In this document: in pieces, positions 8,372-64,000 of the stretch
Numbering within the stretch: the first letter of the stretch is position 1
Layout of the letters: each line of letters begins with the position of its first letter
Assembly (NCBI RefSeq): GCF_006345805.1
Contig: NW_021835437.1
Location: 9,033-73,032, forward strand
Length of the DNA: 64,000 bases
Direction: 5' to 3'
Source of the DNA: Octopus sinensis
Lineage: Eukaryota
Translations under genes and position numbers: made by a program
The notes under the pieces: model-generated
Told to the model about the DNA's origin: nothing
The model's input: only the letters and a program-made list of their open reading frames with translations
Databases searched by the model: none

Positions 8372-8421
8372 AGCTCTACAGGACTAGAACTGTTTCATTC
8401 AAGAGAAATCTTCAGGAAGCT
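8372..8421 (-). ncRNA. Type I hammerhead ribozyme (inverted copy; 1-nt deletion in stem I)
   Basis: AGCTTC-CTGAAGA-TTTCTCTTGAAT-GAAA-CAG ttctagtc CTG-TA-GAGCT on the minus strand. Confidence 0.75.
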
Positions 8422-8936
8422 AGTTAACAAGAATTGTATTGGCATTTATACATTTAGGCAGGTTTAAAGGGGTGTTGGTGGGGGACTTTTTGGGGGTAGG
8501 CATAGCGCAAAATATCATACTTGGGGGAGTGGTCAAGGAGTCAGTGTTAAATTAGATAGAAGAATAAATAAAAAAATAAAAAATATATAAAAATATATAA
8601 AAATATATATAAAAAAGAATAGAGTTTTAGGTAAATAAGGAGATTCTCACTTAACCTATGCACTATGTATACATATATACACACACATACAAACATATAT
8701 ACATATACATACACACATACGTACACACACACATATATACATATATATACACTTACACACACATATACATATCTACACATACACATATATGTATACATAC
8801 ACACACTCACATGCATACACGTATACACACATGTTATATATACACACACGACCACACATACATATACACACAGAAAATGTATGTATGTTGTGCGTATATT
8901 TGTATATGTATGTATGTATATGTATGTGTGTGTATG

Positions 8937-9794: not shown

Positions 9795-10387
9795 GATATT
9801 ATTGTGTGTATATGTGTATATATGTGTGTATATTGTGTATATAGGGACTAGTGTGCTGTGTGTGCATATGTGTGTGTGGATAGTGTGTGTATGCGTGTAT
9901 GTGAGTATTGTGTGTATGTGTATATATATTTTTCTGTGTGTATATGTATGTGTGGTCGTGTGTGTTATAATACATTGTGTATACGTGTATGCATGTGAGT
10001 GTGTGTTGTATACATATATGTGTATGTGTAGATATGTATATGTATGTGTAAGTGTATATATATGTATATATGTGTGTGTGTACGTATGTGTGTATGTATA
10101 TGTATATATGTTTGTATGTGTGTGTATATATGTATACATATGTGCATAGGTATAAGTGAGAATCTCCTTATTTACCTAAAACTCTATTCCCTTTTTTATA
10201 TATATTTTTATATATTTTTTAATATATTTTTTAATTTTGTTTATTTATTCTTCTATCTAATTTAACACTGACTCCTTGACCACTCCCAAGTATGATATTT
10301 TGCGCTATGCCTACCCCCAAAAGTCCCCCACCACACTCCCTTTAAACCTGCCTAAATGTATAAATGCCAATACAATTCTTGTTAACT

Positions 10388-10438
10388 AGCTTCCTGAAGA
10401 TTTCTCTTGAATGAAACAGTTCTAGTCCTGTAGAAGCT
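10388..10438 (+). ncRNA. Type I hammerhead ribozyme
   Basis: Stem I AGCTTC/GAAGCT, core CTGAAGA, stem II TTC/GAA with U.U at 10.1/11.1, GAAA, stem III CAG/CTG, GUA triplet (predicted cut after 10432). Confidence 0.85.
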
Positions 10439-19084: not shown

Positions 19085-19253
19085 TACAAGATATATATAT
19101 ATATATATTTCTGCATATATATACTATAAATACTTACACACACACGCACGCACACAAACACATGCACAGAAATATCTATCTTATATATATGTGTGGTGTG
19201 TGTGTGTATGTATATATATATATATATTATATATATACGTATACAATACATAT

Positions 19254-19410
19254 ATACGACGGGTTCTTTCAGTTTCCGTCTACCAAATCAATCACAAGGC
19301 TTGGGTCGGCCCGAGGCTATAGTAGAAGACACTTGCCCAAGGTGCCACGCAGTGGGACTGAATCCGGAACCATGTGGTTGGTAAGCAAGCTACTTAGCAC
19401 ACAGCCACTC
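19254..19410 (-). mobile_element. SINE family A, 5' half
   Basis: Reverse complement of the family A head. Confidence 0.9.
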
Positions 19411-21595: not shown

Positions 21596-22647
21596 TTATA
21601 TTATTATCATAAATACAATGGGATCGTGGAAAAAAGGCCGATCAATGGGGATCGTGTATCACAAAAACGTCATAGTGTAAATAGGGGAAACAGATTAGGT
21701 TCATCCGTGGAAAGAAAAGCCTACAGAAAAGACCACGGTAACTTTGGGCAATTATGTCATGCAAAAAAACACATTACAGTACGTGACTCTCCTTTTTCCT
21801 TTCCTTTTTTTGTCTCATAGGATTATGCTCAAGGTGGCTCCATCATTCACACGTGCCATCCTTGCTACATTCACCCATCTTTTTTTAAAACATTCACTAG
21901 ACAAAACTTCCCTCTCTACTCTCACTTTCCTCTTCAAGTGATACTTGAAGAAGTTGATAATAGACTGACCAGAGAGGAAAGTGTTTCTCTCTTGACCTTT
22001 CAGACGCGTCCACCAGATACATTCTTTGGCCATAGCCACAAGTACGATGAAATTGGCTCTTCCTTCCCGTTTCAAGGAAGGAGGCGCAACCATATTCACG
22101 ATAGACTCGGTCGATAAACTGACTCGACCCACACGGGATAACAGTCGTTCGATATAGGCCCAAATGTCGAAAACTATTGGACACTGTACGAGTGTGTGCA
22201 GAACGGTTTCGTCGCTCTGACCGCATCTCTGGCAGGTCGATCCCGTGTTTCTGGATCTATGCCTATAGAGCTTATCCCGAACGGGTAGCGCTTCTCGATT
22301 GCACTGCCAGGCCAGGGATCTCTGGAAATTGTCGATAGGTCCCGGCCTGAAAATCTTCTTGAACAGGCGGGTCAGGTATTCCTCGTCAATGCCCAGGTTC
22401 ACACCGGCATTGTCGTCGTACCTCCCCTCCACTAATCCCCTACAGAATGCTTTGGTTGTGTTGCTGTCGCTCAAGGTCGACTCGGGATGGTATAGTTGTT
22501 CGAGAGCAACGCAACACTCTCGCTGCCTTTCGTCCTTCCTCGGCCTCTTTTTGATCCACGACTGCAGTTCGGTCATGGAGACGAGCAGTGGGAAAGGGCG
22601 CTTCACAAACGGCGACCACACCTGTCCACCGTCGTCTTCGTAGAGCC

Positions 22648-22648
<1 letters not shown>
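21596..22648 (-). mobile_element. 5'-truncated Tx1/L1-clade LINE (ORF2 C-terminus with zf-RVT, plus 3' UTR)
   Basis: Open frame 22648-21815: LAWQCNREALPVRDKL...CQRCGQSDETVLHTLVQCP..IW..KECIWWTR (zf-RVT CxxC...H...C); GC-rich relative to the flanks. Confidence 0.88.
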
Positions 22649-22710
<62 letters not shown>

Positions 22711-23048
22711 GGACAGAGAGACAGAGACAGTCAGACAGAGACAGATAGACAGACAGAGACAGACAGACAGGCGGGCAGACAAAGAGACAGACAGACAGAT
22801 AGACAGGCAGATGGATAGATAGATAGTTATATAGATAGGCAGACAGACAGACAGACAGACAAGCAGGCACACAGTCAGACAGATAGATAGATAGATAGAT
22901 AGACAGCAGACAGACAGACAGACAGACAGACAGACAGGCAGGCAGGCAGGCAGGCAGACAGGCAGACAAACAGACAGACAGATAGATAGACAGACAGACA
23001 GGTGACAGACAGATATATAGATATCCAGCTAGATAGATAGATAGATAG
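22649..23048. repeat. (GATA)n/(GACA)n microsatellite
   Basis: Direct reading; explains the spurious N-terminus of the 443-aa ORF. Confidence 0.95.
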
Positions 23049-23803
23049 AGTGGATCTTTATAATTCATTGTCTTCGGTGTTGTGCAGTAAAATCCCACTG
23101 AATCATTTCCTGAACGATTTGCAAAACAGATACATTCACGCCACAATATAGTTCCTCGTACATACTATGACCTTGTATCTGTAAACTGCGTTATAAGGTG
23201 GTAGGATTTGACTAGCCACATCGAGGCTGAGACAAGGGTTAACAAGATCAACGGAGCTTACAATAATAAAAGCAATTTAAACTGTAAAAAATACTTTAAA
23301 AATATCTAACACCAGACAAAAAGGCCACGGCATTTCAAGAAGACTCAAAGAAGCCTGACGTCAACAATAAACAAACATTAAATGTAACCAGTATTGAATG
23401 AAAATCAGACAGACATATGAATCCCTCTACGTCTTTGCCTACAATAAAAACGGTCATAACAATCGCCATTATTATTGTATCCTCCACGAGATAAAATATA
23501 ATGAAAAAAGGGTCAGGCATCATCAATGGTAAATCGTAAGTTTATTGTAACAATCATAATATAAAAAATTAATTAGAAGCGGACGAAAGTGTATGGAATG
23601 GGAAAATAATGAAATAAAAATTCAAGCTGGTCCCATATTTCCCAATAATGTAACGATTATGAGAAAATCTGTTCCTAATCAAGAGAGTAGTATGTGTCTG
23701 CGGGTGTGTATGGGCACGTGCACGTGTATTTACATGTATATGAATATATATATATATATATATATATGAAAAAACAAGTCAAAAACAAGTTCCTTTTCAA
23801 CCC

Positions 23804-30859: not shown

Positions 30860-31430
30860 TATATATATATAATATATATATATATATGTGTGTGTGTGGT
30901 GTGTGTGTGTGTGTGTGGGTGTGTAAGAGTATGTGTGTTTGCATATGTGTGTGCGGGGATGCTTGAGTTACTCTAATATTTTTGTGTATTCTGTTTTTGT
31001 ATACATTAACATAATTTCAGTGCATTATGAATATTCATGAGAGCACACGCACAGTAAGCTAGTCAATTCATCTTCATGCTGTCAGTGTAAAGAGGAAACT
31101 TGTATACATAGATTTCTATAAGTGTGTACGTGGGTCTTTGTATACATATATAGATAGACAGAGATTGATAGATAGATAGATAGATAGATGATAGATAGAT
31201 AGATTGATTGATTGATAGATAGCTAGATAGATAGCTAGCTAGATAGATAGATAGATTGATAGATAGATAGATAGATAGATAGATAGAGTAGACTAGATAG
31301 ATAGATAGATAGCAGATATGTATATATATATATAATATATATACACACAAATATATAGGATAGATATGAAATTACATATATGTGTATATATATTATATAT
31401 ATATATAGATATATATATATATATGTGTGT

Positions 31431-31466
<36 letters not shown>

Positions 31467-31701
31467 TATGTGTTTGCCATATGTGTGTGCGGGGATGCTT
31501 TGAGTTACTCTAATTTTTGTGTATTCTGTTTTTGTATACATTAACATAATTTAGTGCATTATGATGATATTCATGAGAGCACACGCACAGTAAGCTAGTC
31601 AATTCATCTTCATGCTGTCAGTGTAAAGAGGAAACTTGTATACATAGATTTCTATAAGTGTGTACGTGGGTCTTTGTATACATATTAGATAGACAGAGAT
31701 T

Positions 31702-31736
<35 letters not shown>

Positions 31737-31930
31737 GATTGATTGATAGATAGCTAGATAGATAGCTAGCTAGATAGATAGATAGATTGATAGATAGATA
31801 GATAGATAGATAGATAGAGTAGACTAGATAGATAGATAGATAGATATGTGTATATATATATAATATATATACACACAAATATATATGGATAGATATGAAA
31901 TTACATATATGTGTATATATATATATATAT
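30860..31930. repeat. ~540 bp direct tandem duplication (2 copies)
   Basis: Unique block gcggggatgct...gtgggtctttgtatacat at ~30953 and ~31489. Confidence 0.92.
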
Positions 31931-36372: not shown

Positions 36373-36433
36373 TTGCCGCTGAAGAGGTGGAAATTTCTTA
36401 TTAATTAACCCCGAAATTGGACCAATACGGTAA
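36373..36433 (+). ncRNA. Type I hammerhead in a (TA)n-flanked module (36311-36570)
   Basis: TTGCCG-CTGAAGA-GGTGG...CCCC-GAAA-TTGG a CCAA-TA-CGGTAA; AUA triplet (predicted cut after 36427). Confidence 0.8.
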
Positions 36434-36609: not shown

Positions 36610-36785
36610 GTTAATCCAAACAAGAAAGAACAAAAAACAGAACAACGCGAGGACGTGGAGCAAATATAGTATTATTGGACGCTCAGGAAAGAAAGAACGA
36701 AGGAGGGCTTAACGTTTCGAGCGGAGCTCTTCGTCGGAAAAATAGGAGAAGGAAAGATCCAGAGAAGGGAAAACAGGGAAGACGC
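36610..36785 (-). mobile_element. PLE pseudo-LTR fragment with a minimal hammerhead (36708-36741)
   Basis: Minus strand CCGACGA-A-GAGC tcc GCTC-GAAACGTT (U4>C variant, palindromic ACGT stem III); ends in (TA)n. Confidence 0.7.
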
Positions 36786-37462
36786 GGTATGCATAAATAC
36801 ACACACTAGTACACATGCGCAGACAAGCATGCTTACTTACACTCTTGTGCTTTGAAATGGAAACACCCAGGATTCGACTGATGCAATCCTCCATTTCTAC
36901 TCTGATTTTGATATATATATATGCATAATTCCTTCTTATCAGTCTCATATCACTCTCCATCTCAGCATTTAGATAGATTCTCTGCTGCGAATCAACAGCT
37001 ACGATATTTTGTGCAATTATTGTCTACCAATAATATTTTGAGATACCGACGAAAGAAGATAATTTTTGCACAAATCATCTGAAATAACTTCAAGAAACTC
37101 GCGTATTAAATTCATTCAAAATATCATCCTTTGGTTTTGTGAGTATTCTTATATAGATATATATAGGATTCCATGCGCCCTACAGTTGAGGTTAAAGCTG
37201 AAAGCAGATTACCATCATCCAGTCACCTTCTGGTAAAGTGGTGTGAACACATTTATATTTAGCAGAATTATTGATTATGTTGTGCACCTTGTATTTATTT
37301 TACTTTTATCTATGTGTGTGTGTGTATGTGTGTAAGTGAATGCTCAGGTAAGTCTGTGTTTTTCTGCGTTGTCTGTGCATATCAGTGTTTATGTCCGTGC
37401 GTGAGTGTGTGTGTTTCTATATCTCTATATTTCTATTGTATCTGTGTTTGAGTCTGCGTCTT

Positions 37463-39277: not shown

Positions 39278-40570
39278 TGTTTGACTTTTGCTTTGCATTC
39301 GTACAAGTTGATTCCAAGTTTTACCCAGAGACTTCAAGAGGCAACAAGCTAGAAGTTCAAGTTGGTGTTATGGCTATGGTGTCATACATTTAATTTTGTA
39401 CGTAGTAATGTTCTAGAGAATGTTTAAGAAATCATAAGAAAATCATAAGTCTGTTTTAAAATTTGAGATTACATTAACAGTATTTTACATTAACAGGTAT
39501 TGTTTTAGTCTTGAGGTTCCACATTTTGCCAATCTCTATTTCAAGATCGTTATACTTGCTCAGTTTTTGGTAGGTCTTCACAGATACATTTATGCTGACT
39601 AGGACAGTCATCTGAATGAGGAGGCATTACTTTTGTCTGAAGTCTTTCAATTTTATGCCTGGCCTATTCGCATCTAGCATTCTGTCAGTTTGAACGGGGA
39701 AGATCTAGAGGAGTAAGATGTGATCATTTCCAAGCACCGGAAGTGATTAGTGTTTCCACCAGTTTTTTATCATGGAGCAGGTCCATCCTTTTGCAAATTA
39801 CCCAGTGAATATGCTGTGCAGCTCTACGATGCCTGTTGAGATACTGTGTATAAGCATCTGGAGACAGCATGATCAATGGCTTTATTTTGTTGTTTACACA
39901 GCCGACATCTTGTGCTACAGTCGTTCTTTAATATGTTGGCCAGGTAGCTCCTTGTAGGTACGCATTGATCTTGGGCAGCTATAATAAACCCTTCTGTTTC
40001 TGATTTTAAGCGAGAAGATACTAACCATTGATGGGTAAAGGCTTTGCCAAAATCGGCATTATTCGCTCTCTTTGGGTATTTGCTATTGAGAGGTTTTTCT
40101 TGCCATTTATCAGTAAGAGTATCTAAGGCAGCAGTTTTAGCACGGGTTTTCATACGCTTAGCTTTTTCTGTGCTTGTTTTCAGTACGTCTAATTCTGGGA
40201 TTTCTTGTATTTGGAATTCACTTAGATATTCCTTTGCTTCTTTTGTTACTGAGTATGATGCTTTCTTGTTTTCATTCTTTGAGACAAGTTTTAACATCTA
40301 GTCATCAGTTTTTCAGGTAAGCATTTAGGCCAATTGTGGAAATCTTCATTGGTAATTCCAGTTGTAAAAGTCCACAGCCAGCCTCTTTTCTTGGCAGATA
40401 AAGTCGTTCTATATCTGCCTTAGGGTGGTGCATTCTATCCATTGTCAGCAGTTTTCGTATTTTTCTGTCAAGATTACATATTTCAGTAATTGACCAGTTA
40501 ACGATATTGAAACTGTAAGTCACGACAGGTATGGCTAAAGCATTGATCGCTTCGATCCTGTTTCTCGCAT
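39278..40570 (-). mobile_element. Dong/R4-clade LINE, 5'-truncated (RT C-terminus, CCHC finger, RLE)
   Basis: AINALAIPVVTYSF..W..LDRKIRKLLT..MHHPKADIERLYLPRKEAGCGL; SETEGFIIAAQDQ..TRSY; CRLC..DH..C; NRP..K.SKY.DLEIEI.KMW; (TAA)n at both ends. Confidence 0.88.
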
Positions 40571-43914: not shown

Positions 43915-43919
<5 letters not shown>

Positions 43920-44143
43920 CTTTACTATCACAAGGGTTAAACACAGAGGGGACAAACCAAGGACAGACAAACGGATTAAGAAGATTACAATCAACCAGTG
44001 CGTAACTGGTACTTAATTTATCGACCCCGAAAGGATGAAAGGCAAAGTCGACCTCGGCGGAATTTGAACTCAGAACGTAACGGCAGACGAAATACGGCTA
44101 CGCATTTCGCCCGGCGTGCTAACGTTTCTGCCAGCTCGCCGCC
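43915..44143 (-). mobile_element. SINE family B, young full-length copy in (TA)n
   Basis: Reverse complement begins GGCGGCGAGCTGGCAGAAACGTTAGCACGCCGGGCGAAATGCG. Confidence 0.92.
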
Positions 44144-44914
44144 TTATATATATATATATACATACACATACGCACAGACGAAAGCGTACATATATTTATA
44201 TACAGATAGACACATAGAATTCTCTATGGAACGTGATCGACGAACAAGTGCCTACGTGGAATGATTGTGTGGATATAATTAATAAAATGTCTGTGTGTTC
44301 TAGACGTTGTATATGGTATGCTAGCTAGCAGGACTTTAACGTAGCCATCATGTATCAGATGATGGTTACAATATAGAAAGCTAGATAGCAATCAGTACAC
44401 GTCACATGACTATTTGCGCATTCAACGCATCACTTATATTCCCATAGACAAGTCAAGCTAAAAATTATAGCAATTCTCTTTTCTCTTCTCTCATTGTCTG
44501 TCTATGTCTCTCTCTTTCTTTCACACTCTATCACACACCCGCGCACACACCCACAAACACAGAAACACACTCATATCAACAGATACATACAAATGCTCAT
44601 ACGCACACAGACGCAAAGTGGTTTTCGAAAGAGAAAAACAAAGAATTGTACAATTATGTATATGCATACAAGCACATTTACATTAATGTGTGTGTGTGTG
44701 TGTGTGCGTGCGTATGTGTATGAGTTCATGTTAATGTATGTATAGCGATAGATAGACAACTATATACAAGATGGAAAGGTATATATGTATGGATGTGTGT
44801 AATGGTTGAGACTATATGGATATATTTACATATATGTACACACACACACACACACACACACCACACACACACATATATATATATATACATATGTGTGTGT
44901 GTATTTTATTATTT

Positions 44915-51884: not shown

Positions 51885-52101
51885 ATATGTACATGCATAT
51901 ATATATATATATATACATATATATATAATGTAAAAAATATATATGCATATACACATACATGTACGTACTTATATATGTATATACACATATATTACGTTTT
52001 TTTTTTGACGTCCTGTACCCATATATGCATGTTTAAATACATATATATTTAAGTATGCAAATGTATGTATATATGCACATACATATATACAAACATATAT
52101 T

Positions 52102-52268
52102 GGCGCAGGAGTGGCTGTGTAGTAAGTAGCTTGCTTACCAGCCACATGGTTCCGGGGATTGAGTCCCACTGCGTGGAGCCGGGTCAAGTGTCTTCTACTA
52201 TAGCCTCGGGCCGACCAAAACCTTGTGAGTGGAATTGGTAGACAGAAACAAAAAGAAGACGGTCGTAT
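52102..52268 (+). mobile_element. SINE family A, 5' half
   Basis: GGCGCAGGAGTGGCTGTGTAGTAAGTAGC. Confidence 0.9.
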
Positions 52269-52701
52269 ATATACATACATACATACATACTACTACAACA
52301 TACAATACATATATATATATATATATATATATATCTATTATATATATATATATATATAATATATATATGCTCGCTCATTTGCGTGTGCCTGTACGTGGGT
52401 GTCTTTTAATGTTTGGTGCACATGCGAAATCAAAAGCAAGTAAGTCTTCCGATTCCTCTTGTTCTGAGATTGTCCTCTTTAAATCAGCGTCTAAGTCTTT
52501 TCATACTATACAGAAGCCGTAACACAGAAAGACAACAATCACTGAACGGAATCCTGTAATTCTGTTTGAGGACCTATTGATCTAGCGTTTGTATTAGACC
52601 AGAAACAAATATCAGAGCATCCAATATGCTTTTACTGCGTATGGAGATACACACATGCACATATACATGTGTGTGTGTGTAGATATTTAGATAGATAAAT
52701 G

Positions 52702-55130: not shown

Positions 55131-55584
55131 TACTGTATATTGTTCATGGATTCCATATATTAAAGTCCTTAAAGCATTTCAGAGTTCTATTATTTTGTAT
55201 ATAGTATCTTATTATAACTTTCGAGACAGTACCAAAAGTTTCATGCTTGAAGAGGAACGGAAGTCTGGCCAAGTCTATGTAGGGTTACATCAGTAGATAG
55301 GTGTCGGCAGAGTGCGATGTTGTGAGAAAAAGATTTTGCTACAGAGAAATGAACAAAAAGATTTTGACTGCTATCTTGAGATGTACGCGACGAAGATTTG
55401 AAGGCAGAGGCAGAAAGCAGCGGCAACTTGAATGCACTAAGTCAGTTACGATTCTTATGATCTTTAATCTTAAATCGTGGCCTGAAGGGTTAAAGAATGC
55501 TATACTCTATTATATATGTATACATATGTCTATATATATATATATATATTATATATATATATATGCATAAGAATAAGCCCTGGG

Positions 55585-55934
55585 GTCGACCAAATCGACA
55601 CCAGGCCTATTCTTTGTAAGCCAAGTACTTATTCTATCGGTCTCTTTTGCCGAACCGCTAAGTTACGGGGACGTACACACACTAGCATTGGTTGTCAAGC
55701 GATGTTGGGGGGGACAAACACAGACACACAAACATATACACACACATACATACATATATATATATATATATACATATATACGACAGGCTTCTTTCAGTTT
55801 CCGTCGACCAAATCTATTCACAAGACTTTGGTCGGCCCGGGGCTATAGTAGAAGACACTTGCCCATGGTGCCACGCAGTGGGACTGAACCCGGAACCATG
55901 TGGTTCGTAAGCAAGCTACTTACCACACAGCCAC
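55585..55934 (-). mobile_element. SINE family A, young, 3'-truncated
   Basis: High similarity to 62664-63110. Confidence 0.9.
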
Positions 55935-62663: not shown

Positions 62664-63110
62664 TACTCTTTTACTCTTTTACTTCTTTCAGTCATATGAC
62701 TGCGGCCATGCTGGAGCACCGCCTTTAATCGAGCAACTCGACCCCGGGACTTATTCTTTTGTAAGCCCAGTATTTATTCTATCGGTCTCTTTTGCCGAAC
62801 CGCTAAGTAACGGGGACATAAACACACCAGCATCGGTTGTCAAGCAATGCTAGGTGGACAAACACAGACACACAAACACCGCACACGCATATATATATAT
62901 ATATATAATATATATATATATATATCTATAATATATAATATATATATACGACGGACTTCTTTCAGTTTCCGTCAACCAAAGCCCCTCACAGGCTTTGGTC
63001 GGCCCGATGCTATAGTAGAAGACACTTTCCCAAGGTGCCACGCAATGGGAGTGAACCCGGAACCGTGTGGTTGGTAAACAAGCTACTTACCACACAGCCA
63101 CTCCTGCGCC
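62664..63110 (-). mobile_element. SINE family A, full length, with internal (TA)n
   Basis: Complete head to (GAGTAAAA)n-like tail. Confidence 0.93.
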
Positions 63111-63537
63111 TATGTTTATTTACTTTCACCGGTTTCACTTTTTTAGAAAAAGATTGACAAAAGGATCATGTAAAAGCTTGGTTGTGTTAGTTACTGGTTG
63201 TCACAAAATACTACGATACATATATACACTTTTTGATAACAAGAACATGTTAAGAACAGTTTGCAAGGGGAAATCTTGGGAAAATATTAAAAAGTTCATT
63301 AAAATATTGGGCACAAATGATTAAAACATATATATACATTCTCAAGGGAATGTTAAAGATACACACCTTGATTTAAATTCACACACACACATTCTCACGT
63401 ATATATACGTACACACGTACACATATACATCATAGACATATATACATGCATACATTCATATATACATATAAACATTATATCCTGCATATATATATAATAT
63501 TATATATATAATATATATATATAGATATATATATATA

Positions 63538-63780
63538 TGGTAAACAGTAAAAATAATTACAGACATGGACAAGAAACATGAACACCACAGAGACGACACA
63601 AGAACCACAGGACGGAAACATTCGAAGCCCTCAGTCATCAGTCAAGAACCAGATCATCTTAGCAATTTCGGCTGATTAATCTTGAGATTGCTCCGATATG
63701 GCCAGCCCGCCAAGGGAAATCTAAGCCAAGCGCATTAGATCCCCTGGAAGAAAGCTTCGAATGTATACAACGCGAGGACG
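63538..63780 (-). mobile_element. (TA)n-flanked structured non-coding module, probably PLE-related
   Basis: Several long helices; shares the 14-mer ACAACGCGAGGACG with the PLE terminus at 36642. Confidence 0.6.
63631..63692 (-). ncRNA. Candidate non-circularly permuted hammerhead ribozyme
   Basis: AGCAA-TC-TCAAGA ttaa TCAG cc GAAA-TTGCT [13 nt] TCTTGA-CTGATGA-CTGA; all three stems and both core motifs present, in swapped strand order. Confidence 0.6.
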
Positions 63781-64000
63781 ATATATATATACATATATAT
63801 ATATGTGTGTGTATATATATATGTATAGGGGGAGAGAGAGGGGAAGACAGTTAGGGAGGGAGAGAGTGCGATAGGGAGAAAGAGACACTCTCACACAAGG
63901 AGTTATTAATGAGGGATTATCAATCTGAGCAAAATATTTTATAAGCTCTCTGTTAATACACCAGGCTTACAGGGTCTTTAGATTAGTAAAGAATTCCGCA

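Follow-up and report, generated by a model that had tools for sequence, protein, structure and literature searches.

The insert analyzed here occupies positions 63539-63780 (242 nt) of a 64,000-nt stretch of Octopus sinensis DNA; this whole stretch is referred to below as the window, and the insert as the module. Both ends of the insert adjoin (TA)n repeats, in tracts at 63486-63538 and 63781-63804 that correspond, respectively, to the 3' and 5' ends of a minus-strand RNA. The presence of (TA)n on both sides, pointed out in the initial annotation, was borne out and the boundaries are sharp, but such flanks are common in this region: the window contains 90 merged (TA)n tracts and, since 28 of the 89 gaps between tracts are 100-400 nt long, the flanks of the insert are not distinctive within it. 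The window is AT-rich (26-40% GC per 2 kb) and dense in microsatellites (197 rows in the TRF output).

Read on the minus strand, the module carries the three sequence blocks of a hammerhead ribozyme. The cleavage block (block S, 63692-63680) comes first, and is made up of a stem III strand AGCAAU (63692-63687), C17 (63686) and a stem I strand UCAAGA (63685-63680), with the predicted cut between 63686 and 63685. A 4-nt linker (63679-63676) leads from distal stem I to distal stem II and into the GAAA block (block G, 63675-63661), which consists of the 11.x strand of stem II, UCAGCC (63675-63670), followed by GAAA (63669-63666) and the stem III strand AUUGCU (63666-63661). The CUGAUGA block (block C, 63647-63635) is last; it lacks a stem II strand and comprises the stem I strand UCUUGA (63647-63642) and the core CUGAUGA (63641-63635). 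This order, Site-GAAA-CUGAUGA, is a non-circular permutation of the hammerhead and corresponds to type SGC of Eckert et al. 2023 (PMC10085705); here and below, comparisons with published systems refer to those portions of the cited papers that were consulted. The core nucleotides are complete, including the NUH triplet AUC at 63688-63686, and stems I and III have 6 + 6 Watson-Crick pairs in the exact hammerhead register. When both strands of the window were scanned for all six block orders, this was the sole SGC match. The same six orders, sought in 40 block-shuffled windows, gave six matches with 4 + 4 pairs and none with 5 + 5. Stems of 6 + 6 pairs did not arise in any of 40,000 shuffles of the module, and arose in 3 of 200,000 when the core motifs were held fixed and the rest was shuffled. 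No hammerhead was found on the opposite (plus) strand of the module by the scan of six orders or by the type I scan, nor did the module itself match a type I hammerhead, its order being SGC. In the whole window, Rfam gave 0 matches at the gathering score, and by E-value only microsatellite-driven or weak ones; the silence of its covariance models for hammerhead types I-III may simply reflect the non-circular order, which these models would not be expected to match.

The sequence was also compared by eye with the published SGC descriptor (PMC10085705), and agreed with all of its terms except the G after CUGAUGA. The base following A9 is C, so that an intact block C, that is CUGAUGA[U]G and then the stem II strand, is absent. 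For this reason the module was not filed as type SGC, though it would work like one. The motifs thus point to a real, non-random element of hammerhead type that appears to work like type SGC but departs from it in one defining feature. A GAUUA sequence at 63681-63677, 3' of the cleavage site, matches the signature of the type-SGC variants, for which a count by eye gave GAUUA 3' of the cut in 26 of 33 rows (PMC10085705). Its chance probability is about 0.002, a post hoc value that is supporting only, and in the module it lies 1 nt further from the cut than in the SGC variants. Pairing of GAUUA with UGAUC is about 4 kcal/mol weaker than a plain 6-bp stem I. A bulged stem I of 4 + 5 bp was rejected as the main form.

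The initial annotation had described the entire segment of about 240 nt as highly structured. This holds for a core of 147 nt (63618-63764), but not for the full 243 nt. The minus strand of the full segment has a fold z-score of -0.25, with 74 of 200 shuffles equally good, and the plus strand one of -1.79 (8 of 200). The 147-nt core, whose ends were chosen post hoc, has a z-score of -3.55 to -3.8 on the minus strand (1 of 200 shuffles) and of -3.47 on the plus strand, each strand being judged against its own shuffles. The 3' 80 nt of the insert, in contrast to the core, score +1.06; the U/G-rich 3' tail (63539-63617) is thus unstructured. The near equality of the two strands of the core (-3.8 versus -3.47) also weakens an earlier argument for a minus-strand RNA, namely that imperfect pairs are G.U on that strand and A.C on the other: after control for composition it carries little weight. 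The strand is assigned here from the hammerhead motifs, not from the G.U asymmetry.

Two helices reported in the initial annotation were recovered. The outer helix, P0, pairs 63764-63750 with 63632-63618 over 15 bp, including 2 G.U pairs; its 5' strand has a pairing probability of 0.99, and its 3' strand begins 2 nt after A9. Helices of at least 15 bp occurred in 19 of 1000 dinucleotide shuffles and at least 11 Watson-Crick pairs in 5 of 1000, and P0 therefore exceeds chance at a modest level. The hairpin P1 (63747-63710) has 7 bp + 6 bp and a z-score of -3.73, equalled in 0 of 300 shuffles of a segment whose ends were chosen after the hairpin had been seen.

The main difficulty lies in stem II. 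The bases directly after A9 form 0 bp in the stem II register and, with no G after CUGAUGA, the published stem II cannot form. Three other partners for UCAGCC exist in the module. In option (a), CUGA at 63634-63631 pairs with UCAG at 63675-63672; this gives 4 bp, leaves 2 nt bulged before G12, has no G10.1-C11.1 pair, and has an energy of -29.7 kcal/mol and a pairing probability of 0.00. Option (b), with GGCU 5 nt further on, also gives 4 bp (-24.2 kcal/mol, probability 0.00), and was rejected because it disrupts P0. Option (c) uses GGCUGG at 63707-63702, which is detached from CUGAUGA and lies upstream of block S. It forms 6 bp with 63675-63670 in the canonical G10.1-C11.1 register (G10.1 = 63707), with a nested energy of -40.2 kcal/mol and a probability of 0.69, and it coexists with the full P0 and P1. 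The G10.1-C11.1 pair is highly conserved in PLE hammerheads (PMC4209133). Option (c) is the sole in-register partner of more than 4 bp within the module; the chance of a 6-bp stem II partner anywhere in the module is 0.26.

If option (c) is combined with the published SGC fold, bases 3' of the stem II strand should pair with bases 5' of the 2.x strand of stem I, forming what is termed the 'I' helix. Such a pairing is present between 63702-63694, directly 3' of the 10.x strand, and 63656-63648, directly 5' of the stem I strand. It has 8 of 9 pairs and one U.C mismatch, or 7 of 8 if stem II keeps its 6 bp, since G63702 is common to both helices. No equivalent of the 'I' helix was found downstream of CUGAUGA, and the correct connectivity is obtained with the upstream strand only. 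The strand that carries both pairings starts 2 nt after P1 and ends 1 nt before block S. In SGC-3 the 'I' helix was shown by mutation to be needed (PMC10085705). An anchored match as good as that of the module was obtained in 490 of 20,000 trials (about 2.5%), and by duplex energy in 6-7% of random linker pairs; stem II together with an 'I' helix anywhere in the upstream 88 nt appeared in 1462 of 50,000 shuffles. The combination is thus only moderately rare by chance. In the full model 106 of the 147 nt are paired, which leaves only the core nucleotides, the loop of P1 and linkers no longer than 4 nt unpaired.

These alternatives bear on the suggestion, made in the initial annotation, that the outer helix overlaps stem II and forms a conformational switch with it. 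The overlap exists for the two weaker options, (a) and (b), but not for the upstream option (c). The switch itself is not supported, as the overlapping stem II has a probability of 0.00 and falls short of the upstream one in stability by 10.5 kcal/mol. Since the upstream stem II coexists with P0, P0 would enable the ribozyme rather than compete with it. A better candidate for an off-state than a switch between P0 and stem II may be a competing 7-bp helix between 63714-63708 and 63664-63658 (probability 0.34), which would sequester a stem III strand. The inactive nested fold has an energy of -42.2 kcal/mol, as compared to -42.1 kcal/mol for the best active nested subset; it should be noted that the ViennaRNA energies are those of nested folds, the pseudoknotted fold being outside its scoring.

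The 14-mer at the 5' end of the module (63767-63780, minus strand) is identical to 36642-36655, as had been noticed previously, and occurs at only those two sites in the window. A shared word of at least 14 nt between the module and the element at 36.6 kb was found in 2 of 5000 shuffles. In the whole window the BLAST E-value of the 14-mer is 0.15; significance is therefore reached only when the two hammerhead-bearing elements alone are compared. The second of these, at 36610-36790 on the minus strand (5' boundary approximate), is a separate PLE-like 3' end with a minimal type I hammerhead (36737-36711) and a palindromic stem III; in it, the 14-mer lies 32 nt from the (TA)n. CUGAnGA is replaced in this hammerhead by CCGACGA (36737-36731), a U4C variant of a kind that is weaker in vitro yet viable in vivo (PMC3088659). 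Since this element has a type I hammerhead and 32 nt beyond the 14-mer, the module may have captured a pLTR boundary at its 5' end, with the 14-mer as its mark. A preference for (TA)n is reported for octopus Naiad and Hydra PLEs, and tails of 30-40 bp for PLE insertions (Craig et al. 2021, PMC8557442), to which the 32 nt of the 36.6-kb element may be compared. The 3' tails of the module and this element show no significant similarity (1165 of 2000 shuffles were equally good), and a terminal redundancy inside the module was rejected (1884 of 2000).

The window has 459 stop-free frames of at least 55 aa, of which 199 passed a complexity filter; 150 of these 199 were scanned against Pfam. No PLE RT or GIY-YIG domain was found among the 150 frames, in a window that ends 220 nt past the 5' end of the module; there were two zf-RVT matches. 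Of the things that the initial annotation named to look for, tandem copies were not found, the module occurring once in the 64-kb window, and a PLE ORF linked to it was not found among the 150 frames. As the module has no type I hammerhead and the window no tandem repeats of it, the module is retrozyme-like at most. Its sharp (TA)n boundaries, its pyrimidine-rich 3' tail and the 14-mer of another hammerhead-bearing PLE-like end are all compatible with mobility, and several other type I hammerheads adjoin (TA)n in the window. From these features we infer mobility and a PLE partner: a non-autonomous, PLE-dependent ribozyme module is plausible, and its mobilization by a PLE seems probable.

Other elements in the window were noted. 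Near-identical inverted arms at 8375-8495 and 10314-10434 are separated by about 1.8 kb. Both contain a type I hammerhead (8415-8377 minus, 10394-10432 plus) in which positions 10.1 and 11.1 form a U.U mismatch. A second inverted pair, 8664-8797 and 10007-10140, lies inside this arrangement, which resembles either an inverted PLE pLTR arrangement or an assembly fold-back. A type I hammerhead-like motif (CUGAAGA ... GAAA, stem III, UA) is present on the plus strand at about 36375-36432; it lies in a segment of 256 nt between (TA)n tracts and points toward the minus-strand hammerhead element at 36610-36790. The motif was read by eye and was missed by a relaxed scan. The (TA)n-bounded segment 24248-24432 (plus) has a degenerate hammerhead-like core and the hexamer CGTCCT 22 nt from (TA)n. 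The same hexamer is found at distances of 6-71 nt from (TA)n in the 36.6-kb element and at two places in the module; of its 12 occurrences in the window, 4 are this near to (TA)n, and all 4 belong to hammerhead-like segments. A tandem duplication of about 535 nt at 30888-31850 has copies that differ by small indels only, which points to indel errors of long reads or to false duplication of the segment. Two LINE-type fragments that match Pfam zf-RVT are located at 21818-23164 and 39827-40297, both on the minus strand; the frame at 21818-22600 matched an Argonauta hians sequence with 52% identity over 81%, and there was a short match in Octopus bimaculoides, these being the 2 of its 9 hits to which an organism name was attached. 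Dispersed SINE-like repeats with separated halves and (TA)n flanks were seen, with approximate coordinates, at 19238-19410, 52100-52290, 55564-55934, 62690-63110 and 43917-44144; ARAGORN found no tRNA. We take the dispersed halves near 62690-63110 to resemble octopus SINEs, an assumption that was not used as evidence.

Searches for relatives of the module gave the following results. There is no second copy within the window. A GTDB scan with a 28-mer gave 0 matches. A gapped SGC-like pattern gave 34 loci, of which 0 had CUGAnGA within 70 nt downstream. Phages gave one 26-nt chance match only, and there was no match in plasmids or E. coli. Protein searches with two stop-free frames of the module, aimed at translated repeat copies, gave 0 matches, and none of six sequence words of the module was found in full-text literature. 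We presume that segments like the module are an abundant repeat in octopus assemblies, but this presumption was not used as evidence. The short core motifs of the module were absent from the consulted part of the PMC8557442 supplement, in which line wrapping could hide matches; in the consulted supplements of PMC8557442 and PMC13282606 taken together, no core motif was seen and two matches to a 10-mer of the 14-mer were to unrelated GC-rich entries. The openly readable literature consulted (including PMC3088659, PMC13725137, PMC10162972, PMC13282606 and bioRxiv 10.64898/2026.09.16.752053) describes neither an animal hammerhead of SGC order nor a core that is split between A9 and G10.1. In the portions consulted, PMC3088659 describes short core insertions only, and PMC13725137 mentions variants with additional helices without detail.

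The closest published counterparts are the type-SGC and SGC-variant hammerheads (PMC10085705), with which the module shares the S-G-C order, two pseudoknots, a short linker between the distal ends of stems I and II, an 'I' helix that connects these stems on their other sides, a linker from G to C in the range of 0-15 nt, and GAUUA 3' of the cut. However, the stem II 10.x and 'I' strands of the module are located 5' of block S rather than after CUGAnGA, and A9 and G10.1 are bridged by P0 and P1; the spacing from H17 to G12 is 16 nt, as compared to 13 in typical SGC rows. The module is also in animal genomic DNA, whereas the consulted part of PMC10085705 places none of the published SGC hammerheads in the genome of a known organism. 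The module resembles PLE hammerheads (PMC4209133) in being genomic and dispersed near PLE-like ends, in the G10.1-C11.1 pair that the upstream stem II strand would give, and in having its insertion point between positions 9 and 10.1. PLE hammerheads, however, belong to type I (CGS), have a short palindromic stem III and a one-nucleotide insert, and work as dimers; the module has a full 6-bp stem III and a reversed block order. Metazoan non-LTR retrozymes (PMC7229834; bioRxiv 10.64898/2026.07.22.740005) are similar in that their monomers of about 220-350 nt are non-coding and hammerhead-bearing, with a proposed PLE dependence, but their defining features are tandem repeats bearing type I hammerheads, and circular RNA, whereas the module is solitary and of SGC order. 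The (TA)n association is common to the module and the octopus Naiad and Hydra PLEs (PMC8557442); unlike the module, Hydra-1_Obim has a canonical type I hammerhead, and the Naiads lack canonical ones.

From the motifs, their order, the complementarities and the chance levels given above, we infer a three-dimensional fold in which the minus-strand RNA would be a double-pseudoknotted SGC hammerhead that is opened between A9 and G10.1, with the gap clamped by P0 and P1. We assign this reading a probability of about 0.55. The 5' to 3' order would be the stem II 10.x strand, the 'I' strand, block S, block G, the 'I' partner, the stem I strand and CUGAUGA. P0 would pair both ends of the domain and P1 would stack on P0; P0, P1, stem II and the core would then meet in a four-way junction whose linkers are 2, 2, 2 and 0 nt long, and this junction could keep A9 beside G10.1 without a covalent bond. 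PLE hammerheads have an extra nucleotide at the same 9/10.1 position (PMC4209133). Among the considerations that weigh against the split fold are the following. The module is known as a single copy, with no relative in the collections searched, so that covariation, the usual standard for such claims, cannot be brought to bear. In addition, according to Eckert et al. (PMC10085705, consulted in part), the known alignments separate CUGAnGA from its stems by 1-2 nt at most, which leaves the split topology without precedent in the literature consulted for comparison.

An unlikely but more conventional explanation is that the module is an ordinary SGC hammerhead whose stem II strand after CUGAUGA has lost 2 nt, by mutation or by assembly error, with GGCUGG as a decoy or duplicate and P0 in partial competition with stem II. 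This is the explanation closest to the switch of the initial annotation, and no new topology is required. The pairing of CUGA with UCAG in option (a) is just 2 nt off the canonical register (chance about 0.02-0.06). Near-identical duplicates in the window, moreover, differ by indels only (6 internal gaps in 220 nt and 3 in 126 nt, with 0 substitutions), so that assembly indel errors are likely and a loss of 2 nt after A9 is kept alive. The sequence at hand nevertheless favors the upstream strand by the 10.5 kcal/mol given above, and a simple loss of 2 nt provides no downstream 'I' helix, though this helix is required in SGC-3 (PMC10085705). It would also leave the upstream strand and its 'I' helix, just before block S, to chance or to a second function.

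Slightly less likely again is a decayed, catalytically dead relic in which neither stem II supports cleavage, the fold being either inherited or a protein-binding structure for a PLE RT. The absence of the canonical A9-G10.1 link, the U.C mismatch in the 'I' helix, and a competing nested fold as stable as the active subset would all fit a relic, as would the poor in vitro cleavage of metazoan PLE hammerheads (PMC4209133). Nonetheless, no core nucleotide and none of the 12 pairs in stems I and III has been lost, and P0 runs without a break, pointing to recent selection or to a young copy.

We consider it improbable that the module is an endogenized viroid-like circular RNA with an SGC-type ribozyme, captured once by a host reverse transcriptase and not part of a PLE-dependent repeat family. 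Such an origin would suit the single copy in the window, the resemblance of GAUUA and UGAUC to the SGC-variant signature, and the fact that the published SGC ribozymes come from metatranscriptomes only (PMC10085705, portions consulted). It would not account for the 14-mer common to the module and a resident PLE-like end; the structured part comprises 147 of 242 nt, unlike rod-like circles, and an opposite-strand hammerhead was not found. A chance arrangement or a DNA-level inverted repeat without RNA function is very improbable: the whole-module z-score of -0.25, the commonness of (TA)n flanks in the window and the lack of an Rfam hammerhead match would agree with it, but the in-register stems arose in only 3 of the 200,000 constrained shuffles, and a MITE was rejected because the module ends are not inverted repeats and the P0 arms stop 16 and 79 nt short of them.

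If the split double-pseudoknotted fold is correct, ordinary hammerhead chemistry would cut after C63686, leaving a 2',3'-cyclic phosphate and a 5'-OH. Prefix folding forms P1 and stem II early and P0 last, so that cutting would need the whole 147-nt domain. The cleavage products would stay annealed and could re-ligate. In a circle or a tandem array, the same fold would amount to a normal SGC ribozyme that accommodates the remainder of the element between A9 and G10.1. It would likely serve to process tandem or circular transcripts from a short non-autonomous element, which a Penelope-like RT/endonuclease would insert into (TA)n. Since the genomic copy keeps 95 nt upstream of the cut, its template would have been an uncut, re-ligated, circular or tandem RNA, and not a cleaved linear monomer alone. 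The CUGA after A9 is possibly a relic of a duplicated stem II strand, which would suggest an origin by duplication and deletion. Taken to its furthest extent, this reading describes an active multicopy family of animal retro-elements with a seventh hammerhead topology, non-circular, split at A9/G10.1, rebuilt by a four-way junction, and cutting only once a complete unit has been transcribed or circularized; for this larger claim we put the odds at somewhat less than even.

Eckert et al. (PMC10085705, portions consulted) found SGC hammerheads only in metatranscriptomes, and assumed that the three blocks are uninterruptible. Even on a conservative reading, an animal genome carries a hammerhead of SGC order in the octopus module, and repeat copies could allow the origin of non-circular permutations to be traced. 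The bolder reading, if true, would make the module the first SGC-type ribozyme reported in a cellular genome, as far as the literature found extends. It would add a novel construction of the active site, in which a helix junction takes the place of the A9-G10.1 bond, and would break the rule of three indivisible blocks that underlies the six known permutations. It would also offer a new insertion point for control domains in ribozyme engineering. In that case, searches based on descriptors and covariance models would miss a class of genomic ribozymes, which perhaps includes some PLE families reported with only 'half cores' in the consulted part of Craig et al. 2021.
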